This document shows positions 40,001 to 42,587 of a stretch of DNA of 64,000 nt, piece after piece. The position numbers were made by a program. Every line of letters begins with the position of its first letter. Position 1 is the stretch's first letter. The stretch comes from Escherichia coli (lineage in GTDB: Bacteria > Pseudomonadota > Gammaproteobacteria > Enterobacterales > Enterobacteriaceae), in NCBI RefSeq assembly GCF_003019035.1, contig NZ_CP027447.1; one strand, 5' to 3'.

Positions 40001-42587
40001 CCCCCATGCGTACACACCAGATTTCTTCATCCGGATACTTATCTGCCGATAAAGTGCCCGATCTCTATAAGACAAATTTGAAAGACGCGCAGAGAGATCT
40101 GAAAACAACACCGGTTGACATCGATGGTGTTAGTCTAAAATCAAAAACTCGGGAAAAAATTGCGGAAAAAATTGCGGAAAAAATTGCGAAAAAAACTGAG
40201 GAAGAAAATGCGGAAAAAATTGCGAAACAAAATGCGAAGACCATTGAGGAGAAGAATAGTGAAAAAAACAAGAAAGAAACAAATCCTGAGGATAATTTTG
40301 TCTTAAAATTCTCACCGGAAGAAATCAATGAGATGCTCCTGGATTACAGCGATGAAGAACAAAAAAAATTAAGACCTTTTTTCACTAGTGATCACATCTA
40401 TTGTTTGTTTGATGCTTTTAGTCAGGGTTTGCATAATGTTGCTCGTAATGGCAGTCCACGGTATACAGGTTTACTACATCAAATAGCATCCAACTCTGAG
40501 ATATTACAAGATTTTGATCAACAATTGTTCTGGCGCACGTTTTCAGGAGGAGTCTTCCATCGACGTATCTCTGTGAACAGCGAGCCAGAAAAGACAGATG
40601 TATGGCGATTCAGTACACAATTTGATTTTCCACATATAAATGACAACGGAGAGTTGTCCAGAACGGTACTCATGTTCGAGGGGGTTGCTGAAAGCAACTT
40701 TAAAGATATCGCCAATCATTCCAGCGAATGTTTTTCTTACAGTTGTTATGCCGCTCCGCTGGATGCGAATGCTAAAAAATAGTGACGCCGGAGCTTGAAG
40801 TTTCAGAGCGCCTTGCGTGACGCCTGCGCCATCATCCGCGGATAAAACTGCCAGAAGCGGGTTTCGAGAGCATCGTAATGGGCGTCTAAATCGTACCAGG
40901 AGTCACGCAGGGCATCCAGACGTGGGCGACGGCTTGCCATGCCGTTTAACACGTTCTGGATGAAATCCATATCGCGATAGCGCACCAGCCACTGCTCTGA
41001 CCACAAGTAATTGTTCAGATTGATAAAACGTGGCGGTGAGTCCGGCAAAATCGTCATCACTTGTTCGCGGGCATAACAGACAAATTCCTGTAGCGGAAAG
41101 TCCGGCGACAGCTGCGACCAGTGGCGGGAAAGAAAGTGATCCCACATGACATCCAGCGTAATAGGCGCAACGCGGCGCGTTTCACTACGAAACCATTCCC
41201 GTGCTTCGCGGACTTCCGGCAGATTGTCGGTTAGTACATCAATGCGCCGATGCATATGAATGCCAGCCACGACGTCGGGCGGAAAACTTTCTTCAGGATT
41301 TCCGCGTACGAAATCAGCCAGTAAATTGCCGGAAAGCGAGCTTTCCGCGAGATGGGCTAAATGCAGGTGAGCTAAAAAATTCATCGATTATATTCTATCC
41401 AAAGGGGGGTAAAGGTTGCAGGGAGAGCGCCCCGGCACTAGACTACCCGCCTCTTATTTTAGTCTGAGTCAGTGTCATGCGCGTTACCGATTTCTCCTTT
41501 GAATTGCCCGAATCCCTGATTGCCCACTATCCCATGCCTGAACGCAGTAGCTGTCGTTTACTGTCGCTGGACGGGCCGACGGGCGCGCTGACGCACGGTA
41601 CTTTCACCGATTTACTCGATAAGCTCAACCCCGGCGATCTTCTGGTTTTTAATAATACCCGTGTGATCCCGGCGCGCCTGTTTGGGCGTAAAGCCAGCGG
41701 CGGCAAGATTGAAGTGCTGGTTGAGCGTATGCTCGACGACAAACGCATTCTTGCGCATATTCGCGCCTCGAAAGCGCCAAAACCTGGCGCAGAACTGTTG
41801 CTGGGCGATGACGAAAGTATTAACGCAACAATGACCGCGCGCCACGGCGCACTGTTTGAAGTCGAATTTAATGATGATCGTTCGGTACTGGATATCCTCA
41901 ACAGCATCGGCCATATGCCGCTGCCGCCGTATATCGACCGTCCGGACGAAGACGCTGACCGCGAACTTTATCAAACCGTTTATAGCGAAAAACCGGGCGC
42001 GGTTGCAGCCCCGACCGCTGGTCTGCATTTTGACGAACCTTTGCTGGAAAAATTACGCGCCAAAGGCGTGGAGATGGCGTTTGTGACGTTGCACGTTGGT
42101 GCGGGTACTTTCCAGCCGGTGCGCGTTGACACCATTGAAGACCACATCATGCACTCGGAATATGCAGAAGTGCCGCAGGATGTGGTTGACGCAGTGCTGG
42201 CTGCGAAAGCGCGTGGAAATCGGGTGATTGCGGTTGGCACTACCTCAGTACGTTCGCTGGAAAGCGCGGCCCAGGCGGCGAAAAACGATCTCATCGAACC
42301 GTTCTTTGACGATACCCAAATCTTTATCTATCCCGGCTTCCAGTACAAAGTGGTCGATGCGCTGGTGACGAACTTCCACCTTCCTGAATCGACGCTGATT
42401 ATGCTGGTTTCGGCCTTTGCCGGTTACCAACACACCATGAATGCCTATAAAGCAGCGGTAGAAGAGAAATATCGCTTTTTTAGTTACGGTGATGCGATGT
42501 TTATCACGTACAATCCGCAGGCAATTAATGAGCGCGTCGGGGAGTAATTCCGCGGCGCTGGTTTAAAACGTTGGACTGTTTTTCTGA

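Follow-up and report, generated by a model that had tools for sequence, protein, structure and literature searches.

The stretch of Escherichia coli DNA analysed here (contig NZ_CP027447.1 of assembly GCF_003019035.1; 64,000 nucleotides, hereafter the window) carries, in order, proY, malZ, an open reading frame (ORF) within a low-GC islet, acpH on the minus strand, queA, tgt, yajC and secD. The islet ORF contains a short tandem array of 12-bp units, the sole array reported by Tandem Repeats Finder (TRF) in the whole window at a score of at least 50. This array is an intragenic, in-frame variable-number tandem repeat (VNTR): seven units stand head to tail inside the ORF, the unit length is a multiple of three, and isolates differ from one another by whole units. 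The GC content of the islet is about 30-41% in a composition profile, compared with about 50-58% in its flanks, and the islet lies between the convergent stop codons of malZ (39126) and acpH (40803), a position at which K-12 has 4 bp only. A search of 5426 complete E. coli genomes recovers the ORF in 1127 (roughly 21%), always on the chromosome and always annotated "hypothetical protein", including the O157 Sakai copy, ECs_0454. In every carrier examined for context it is flanked by malZ and acpH. An empty, uninterrupted K-12-type junction is found in 4295 genomes and, set beside the 1127 carriers, identifies the islet as a clean presence/absence polymorphism. The coordinates of the features are collected in Table 1.

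Table 1. Features of the islet and its repeat array, in window coordinates.
Feature	Position	Strand	Remarks
Core tandem array, 7 x 12 bp	40153-40236	+	Units 1, 2, 3 and 6 are perfect GAAAAAATTGCG; codes for residues 281-308
Four further degenerate 12-bp units (KTIE EKNS EKNK KETN)	40237-40284	+	4-7 mismatches each against the consensus
A7 homopolymer	40262-40268	+	Directly past the array; A8 in O145 strains
Islet ORF, 489 amino acids	39313-40782	+	Orphan 'hypothetical protein', Sakai ECs_0454 family
GGAG Shine-Dalgarno-like motif	39302-39305	+	7 nt 5' of the ATG, read from the sequence
Low-GC islet	39127-40802		1.68 kb, about 35% GC; from composition profile and K-12 junction comparison

Read directly from the sequence, the order of units is GAAAAAATTGCG three times, followed by AAAAAAACTGAG, GAAGAAAATGCG, GAAAAAATTGCG and AAACAAAATGCG, and units 4, 5 and 7 differ from GAAAAAATTGCG at 3, 2 and 3 positions, respectively. 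The array is at frame offset 0 in the ORF ((40153-39313) mod 3 = 0), with 281 as its first residue, and its translation is EKIA EKIA EKIA KKTE EENA EKIA KQNA, then K. TRF called the array at 40152-40236 with a period of 12, 7.1 copies, 83% matches and a score of 114, and also called a 48-bp higher-order period at 40143-40267, of which the first 31 bases of the adjoining degenerate units form a part. The self-identity of the array at lag 12 reached 60 of 72 nt at best. In 2000 codon shuffles of the islet ORF, the best value over lags 3-24 averaged 34 and did not exceed 41, and none of the shuffles attained the observed 60. The 12-bp in-frame tandem repeat that an earlier note, made from the sequence alone, had placed at this position is thus borne out. 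The same note had counted three perfect copies followed by four degenerate ones; its translation was exact, but the sixth unit is also perfect, so that four of the seven units are identical. Two minus-strand ORFs over the tract (87 and 61 amino acids) simply mirror the repeat (FSAIFSAIFS...) and were dismissed. Phased A6 tracts raised the possibility of bent DNA or H-NS binding, an idea that was dropped. A second homopolymer, of eight A residues, is present at 40361-40368.

Copy number differs widely among carriers. When written out unit by unit at the DNA level, the alleles have 2, 5, 6, 7 or 10 units. The window and L004 carry 7 units, and L001 and L005 carry 6. IAI39 has 5 units and lacks one EKIA unit and exactly unit 5, the O157:H7 allele also has 5 units and contains no adjacent perfect pair, and L014 has only 2, being without 60 bp between perfect units 1 and 6. 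The longest allele seen, from an O96 strain (L013, GCA_012246995.1, 2340-2462), has 10 units within a protein of 501 amino acids and is organised as a 36-bp higher-order repeat (ETIA-KKNA-KxIA; 3.4 copies, 89% matches). The 36-bp register in O96 and the 48-bp register in the window indicate independent expansions, in blocks of three and four units, in different lineages. In an alignment of eight alleles, all differences in length fall within the array, with the exception of a frameshift in O145, and the stretch of degenerate units that follows is constant in length in the repeat-bearing alleles compared. The ends of the indels in the allele series fall at identical units. L004 and L005 have no mismatches in 1374 bp of flank, yet are one EKIA unit apart.

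The same pattern is seen in larger collections. The gene in carriers is mainly 1446, 1458 or 1470 bp long, and in 120 close protein homologues the variable stretch measures 26, 30, 34, 38, 42, 46, 50 or 58 amino acids, in steps of four residues only. When carriers were sampled systematically, in sets of 40 rows (of 1127 records) and 60 rows (of 1093), about 48% had 5 units, 30% had 6, 16% had 7 and 2% had 4. The repeat number therefore differs across islet carriers, from 2 to 10 units, and the uniformity that the earlier note had named as grounds for abandoning its proposal was not found. Its expectation that gain or loss of units would alter protein length without a frameshift also held, as the tract indels among the alleles compared always comprised whole units and kept the frame.

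One divergent, mosaic allele is without the 12-bp array altogether. This allele, L008 (WP_023307680; NZ_AP045789.1, 1501-2886), encodes 461 amino acids, of which the N-terminal 280 are more than 90% identical to the window protein. Its central segment, set against window positions 40150-40330, is an unrelated sequence, 28 residues shorter and with a synonymous divergence (dS) of about 2, and its C-terminal part has diverged further than its N-terminal part. To judge from its sequence, L008 could predate the expansion of the array, or could have arisen by recombination with a relative that was not sampled. L008-like alleles may also be carried by about 51 genomes whose whole-gene identity lies at 90-95%.

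The protein in which the array resides appears, from the searches made, to be a true orphan. Searches of the whole protein and of each half against Pfam, NCBIfam, PADLOC, PHROGs and PDB sequences returned sub-threshold noise only, mostly from the low-complexity tract. When phmmer was run exhaustively over 1.84 billion cluster representatives, it recovered only the protein's own cluster and fragments, bar one weak match, and the homologues are confined to the E. coli/Shigella/Escherichia sp. cluster. The sole outside match, P0139 (947 amino acids), has three PKD domains that each align with residues 102-158 at 24-31% identity (whole-protein E = 8.7e-7); at this level of identity the relation was judged too weak to use. 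The AlphaFold (AF2) model places beta strands over part of this region (residues 106-145; the region spans window positions 39616-39786), and residues 102-158 may be a degenerate Ig/PKD-like element, or the resemblance may be due to chance. No match to the protein was found in phages by tblastn. In plasmids (PLSDB), tblastn found only two 4.9-Mb records, NZ_CP134663.1 and NZ_CP141089.1, which are evidently E. coli chromosomes misfiled as plasmids. None of 100,044 species-representative genomes matched a degenerate DNA pattern representing the invariant peptide MFEGVAESNFKDIANH, and nothing relevant was found in the literature on the gene, its locus tags or the malZ-acpH site.

With regard to localisation, no signal-peptide-like or Sec-type hydrophobic N-terminus and no membrane-spanning segment was seen by eye, no predictor being run, and no homology to surface, effector or defence families emerged from the libraries searched. 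The composition of the N-terminus offers a possible lead towards a type III secretion effector, and a lead only. The earlier note had considered such repeats typical of surface or effector proteins; for this protein, positive evidence of that kind was not obtained, either in the N-terminal sequence as inspected or as a domain or homologue in any library.

The tract is stable within lineages. One 5-unit tract allele was recovered at no less than 99% identity in 310 genomes, using a 180-bp query over the O157:H7 tract, and all O157-labelled rows in both tract-level samples had the 5-unit span. The large 6-unit group was likewise uniform within the sample. The window's own tract, with its three adjacent perfect units, was present in only 2 genomes, which, together with the near-identical flanks of 5- and 6-unit alleles, suggests a recent expansion from those alleles. 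In three close allele pairs, 4 unit events were counted against 11 flank substitutions in 1374 bp, so that the tract changes at roughly 500 times the rate of a single site. The mutation rate of E. coli is about 2e-10 per site per generation. If unit changes are neutral, a rough inference is that the tract gains or loses units at a rate in the region of 1e-7 per generation, which would be well below both the contraction rate of 6.9e-5 reported for tolA (PMC3477136) and the rates usual for contingency loci.

These observations bear on the possibility, raised in the earlier note, that the array is of the contingency type, that is, a hypermutable tract that diversifies the length of a surface or secreted effector protein under pressure from host or phage. 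The spread from 2 to 10 units among strains, the independent expansions in different registers and the single-unit difference between L004 and L005 on identical flanks are all compatible with such a locus, as is the nature of the gene, which is accessory, AT-rich and fast-evolving (with a ratio of nonsynonymous to synonymous divergence, dN/dS, of up to 0.95), as is often the case for genes related to conflict. Nevertheless, hypermutability within clonal lineages is not observed, given that a tract of identical length is shared by 310 genomes, including all sampled O157 rows, and that the 6-unit group is uniform in its sample. No more than three perfect units are adjacent. Because the unit comprises four codons, the frame is kept and the gene cannot be switched on and off, so that the switching of expression by frameshift or promoter spacing is also missing. 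Taken with the want of a signal-peptide-like N-terminus or long hydrophobic segment on inspection, and of surface, effector or defence homology in the libraries searched, these data make a contingency or antigenic-variation locus unlikely. The tract is instead an ordinary coding length polymorphism, fixed within clones, and not a rapid switch.

The encoded segment is predicted to be helical. The full-length AF2 model is poor, with a mean predicted local distance difference test (pLDDT) score of 37, as would be expected for an orphan whose alignment is shallow; it contains a helix at residues 277-307, with block pLDDT values of 58-67. When residues 262-360 were folded alone, AF2 gave a single helix at 277-318 with block pLDDT values of 74-85, followed by coil over KNKKETNPEDNF and then by two short confident helices. 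Glutamate, lysine and arginine account for 26 of the 50 residues from 277 to 326 (52%), and each EKIA-type unit contributes one isoleucine and one alanine, so that the helix is amphipathic and not purely polar. Over the same 50 residues there are 8 pairs of opposite charge at i,i+4 (4 from E to K and 4 from K to E) and 8 at i,i+3, of which 7 run from K to E. The hydrophobic periodicity of residues 281-308 has a power of 1.75 at 4.0 residues, compared with 0.53 at 3.5 and 0.60 at 3.67. With a period of 4.0, the I/A stripe winds about the helix by about 40 degrees per unit, and follows neither a heptad nor a hendecad.

The earlier note had anticipated a charged helix or coiled coil linking the N- and C-terminal parts. 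A helix between two parts is indeed predicted, but the coiled coil is doubtful. A two- or three-stranded oligomerisation module, the length of which is set by the number of EKIA copies, would account for the long predicted helix and for the regular I/A stripe with E and K charges alongside. However, the periodicity of about 3.5 residues that a/d positions in a heptad coiled coil would produce is not present, the peak being at 4.0, and allele L008 does entirely without the tract. An oligomerisation module of this type is accordingly improbable. Nor does the segment belong with the ER/K single alpha-helices, which have a very high content of E, K and R and dense i,i+4 pairs of opposite charge. 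The predicted helix at 277-318 and the replacement of the whole segment in L008 would be in keeping with a spacer that can be exchanged, as opposed to a piece of a globular core, the full-length model (mean pLDDT 37) being too poor to inform on packing.

The gene as a whole evolves under weak constraint. The dN/dS of the islet ORF is 0.33-0.95, compared with 0.05-0.10 for malZ in the same strain pairs, and nears 1 in the C-terminal part. Segregating sites are distributed almost evenly over the three codon positions ([28,18,32] and [30,25,29]), in contrast to malZ ([9,7,70]). In five of eight strain pairs malZ (37927-39123) has a dS of 0.11-0.15, about 2-4 times the value for the islet ORF (0.03-0.08), and in those same five pairs the dN of the islet ORF is 3-8 times above that of malZ. 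The low dS suggests that the copies of the islet share an ancestor more recent than that of its flanks, and recombination may have spread the islet after the flanks had diverged. An open frame of 489 codons has a probability of about 4e-17 of arising by chance at this composition, and the two alternative frames are interrupted by 26 and 59 stops. Nonsense changes were absent among at least 127-172 mutations, when 5-8 were expected (P about 2e-4 to 5e-3), in a test restricted to alleles whose annotation is intact. In 1125 of the 1127 genomes 80% or more of the gene is retained, and 38 of 40 sampled rows carry an intact coding sequence annotation. Taken together, the sequence data indicate that the islet ORF is a real but weakly constrained accessory orphan, which agrees with the opinion of the earlier note that it is not a core enzyme.

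Loss of the gene has occurred in individual lineages. In O145 strain RM10425-C1 (L007, gene 1501-2971) the A7 homopolymer is extended to A8, and the gene is recorded in RefSeq as a 'frameshifted' pseudogene; a second O145 strain, RM8843-C1, has one extra base too, with a span of 205 bp. It is therefore the homopolymer beside the array, and not the array, that inactivates the gene in that lineage. It is very unlikely that the ORF is a decaying, non-functional remnant in which the repeat is a neutral DNA minisatellite in a chance open frame. In favour of a remnant are the near-even spread of substitutions over codon positions, the high dN/dS of the C-terminal part (near 1), the inactivated alleles (frameshifted in O145, partly deleted in O55:H7) and the failure to find a family, a publication or a homologue beyond the E. 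coli/Shigella/Escherichia sp. cluster. The length of the open frame, the lack of nonsense changes among alleles annotated as intact, the presence of the gene in nearly all carriers and the GGAG motif before its ATG all speak against it.

Several other observations were made in the islet. The O55:H7 deletion, in USDA5905 (L009, 1094-2834), eliminates the 3' end of malZ along with ~1136 bp at the start of the islet ORF; what is left of malZ is joined to the 3' remainder of the ORF, and both are annotated as partial pseudogenes. An imperfect long hairpin is present at window positions 39159-39206 (CAGCCCTGACA ... TGTCAGGGCTG, with an inner GCAGC/GCTGC pair, then AGTTTGTT), directly 3' of the malZ stop and within the islet, and was absent from the output of a simple hairpin scan. 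To judge from its position and sequence, this hairpin may be an islet-borne terminator of malZ. A search of Rfam over 39000-41500, with E up to 1, gave no match.

Taken as a whole, the evidence probably describes an intragenic in-frame VNTR that encodes an E/K/I/A-rich helical spacer in a lineage-restricted, fast-evolving orphan, and that constitutes a slow, clonally stable length polymorphism. The spacer (about residues 277-318) would join an N-terminal part, residues 1-275, to a C-terminal part, residues 330-489, and the models and alleles fit a tract that is a dispensable, adjustable helical spacer between these better-conserved parts. Units of 12 bp, and blocks of 36, 48 or 60 bp, would be gained or lost, likely by replication slippage or by unequal recombination between identical units. 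Each event would lengthen or shorten the helix by four residues without a frameshift, which in standard alpha-helix geometry amounts to about 6 Angstrom along the axis and a net turn of about 40 degrees. Such changes would accrue over evolutionary time, with stable clonal inheritance, and the changes in length are presumably near-neutral or weakly selected.

A number of points weigh against this interpretation. The helix is a prediction obtained from shallow or single-sequence input, and the boundaries of the two flanking parts are drawn from conservation and not from a confident model. The estimate of the rate of unit change is rough and comes from three close allele pairs. In addition, the length of the tract may have a selected role, and the independent expansions in several lineages could reflect selection instead of drift. 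A more novel proposal is that the gene is a conflict-driven orphan (for example an unrecognised secreted factor, antigen or anti-phage component), that its seemingly near-neutral amino-acid changes are in truth the product of diversifying selection, and that the EKIA array serves as an adjustable ruler for the distance and angle between the two domains. This proposal is considered quite improbable; if it were true, lineages would fix different lengths, the 2-10 units corresponding to about 12-60 Angstrom.

Among known systems, the spacer VNTR most closely resembles the repeat of tolA in the same species, which comprises 13 imperfect repeats of 15/18 bp in the K/A-rich helical domain II (Zhou, Michiels & Aertsen 2012, PMC3477136). 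In 234 isolates, tolA has 8-16 copies; its contraction, at 6.9e-5, is RecA-dependent, and stress tolerance is influenced by the number of copies (PMC3477136). The tolA and islet repeats are alike in being short, imperfect and in frame, and in coding for a charged, alanine-containing helical spacer (predicted, for the islet protein) between two parts, functional ones in TolA. Both differ between isolates by whole units (8-16 in tolA, 2-10 here), and slippage or recombination is presumed in both. The units in tolA are longer, at 5-6 K/A-rich amino acids, and number 13, compared with 12-bp EKIA units of which at most three perfect copies are adjacent. Moreover, tolA is a core gene of known function in which the effect of copy number was shown by experiment, whereas the islet gene is an accessory orphan known from sequence. 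By analogy, the islet repeat is best read as a repeat of the tolA type.

Other comparisons are more distant. In-frame coding repeats in Neisseria, in which example tracts reach 4-25 copies of 9-bp units, are treated as 'in-frame phase variation' and as members of a phasome in PMC5953494, where Jordan et al. 2003 is cited. As in those repeats, the unit in the islet ORF is a multiple of three and lies in coding sequence outside any recognised domain, and its number varies between isolates; unlike them, the islet array is short, impure and clonally stable. ER/K-type single alpha-helices are long, isolated, E/K-rich helices that link two parts of a protein, and the islet segment shares with them its richness in E and K and a predicted long helix between two parts. 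It departs from them in that E, K and R make up only about half of residues 277-326, while isoleucine and alanine form half of each EKIA unit. Classical contingency loci, as in the simple-sequence phase-variable genes of Haemophilus and Neisseria, contain extended, uninterrupted runs of 1-8-bp units; changes in these runs alter the reading frame or promoter spacing and occur within clones. Repeat-mediated mutation of the slippage type is common to these loci and the islet repeat, but the latter has no long pure tract, no shift of frame or promoter and no within-clone variation.

The repeat is therefore a previously undescribed but conventional coding length polymorphism, and touches no long-standing open question. 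It is a possible lineage marker for the roughly one-fifth of E. coli that carries the malZ-acpH islet, in which 5, 6 or 7 units mostly occur. It would lack the resolution needed for outbreak tracing, being fixed in all O157-type genomes examined. The host gene may be the more useful by-product: an orphan whose frame is preserved in over 1100 genomes, with very little constraint on its amino-acid sequence.

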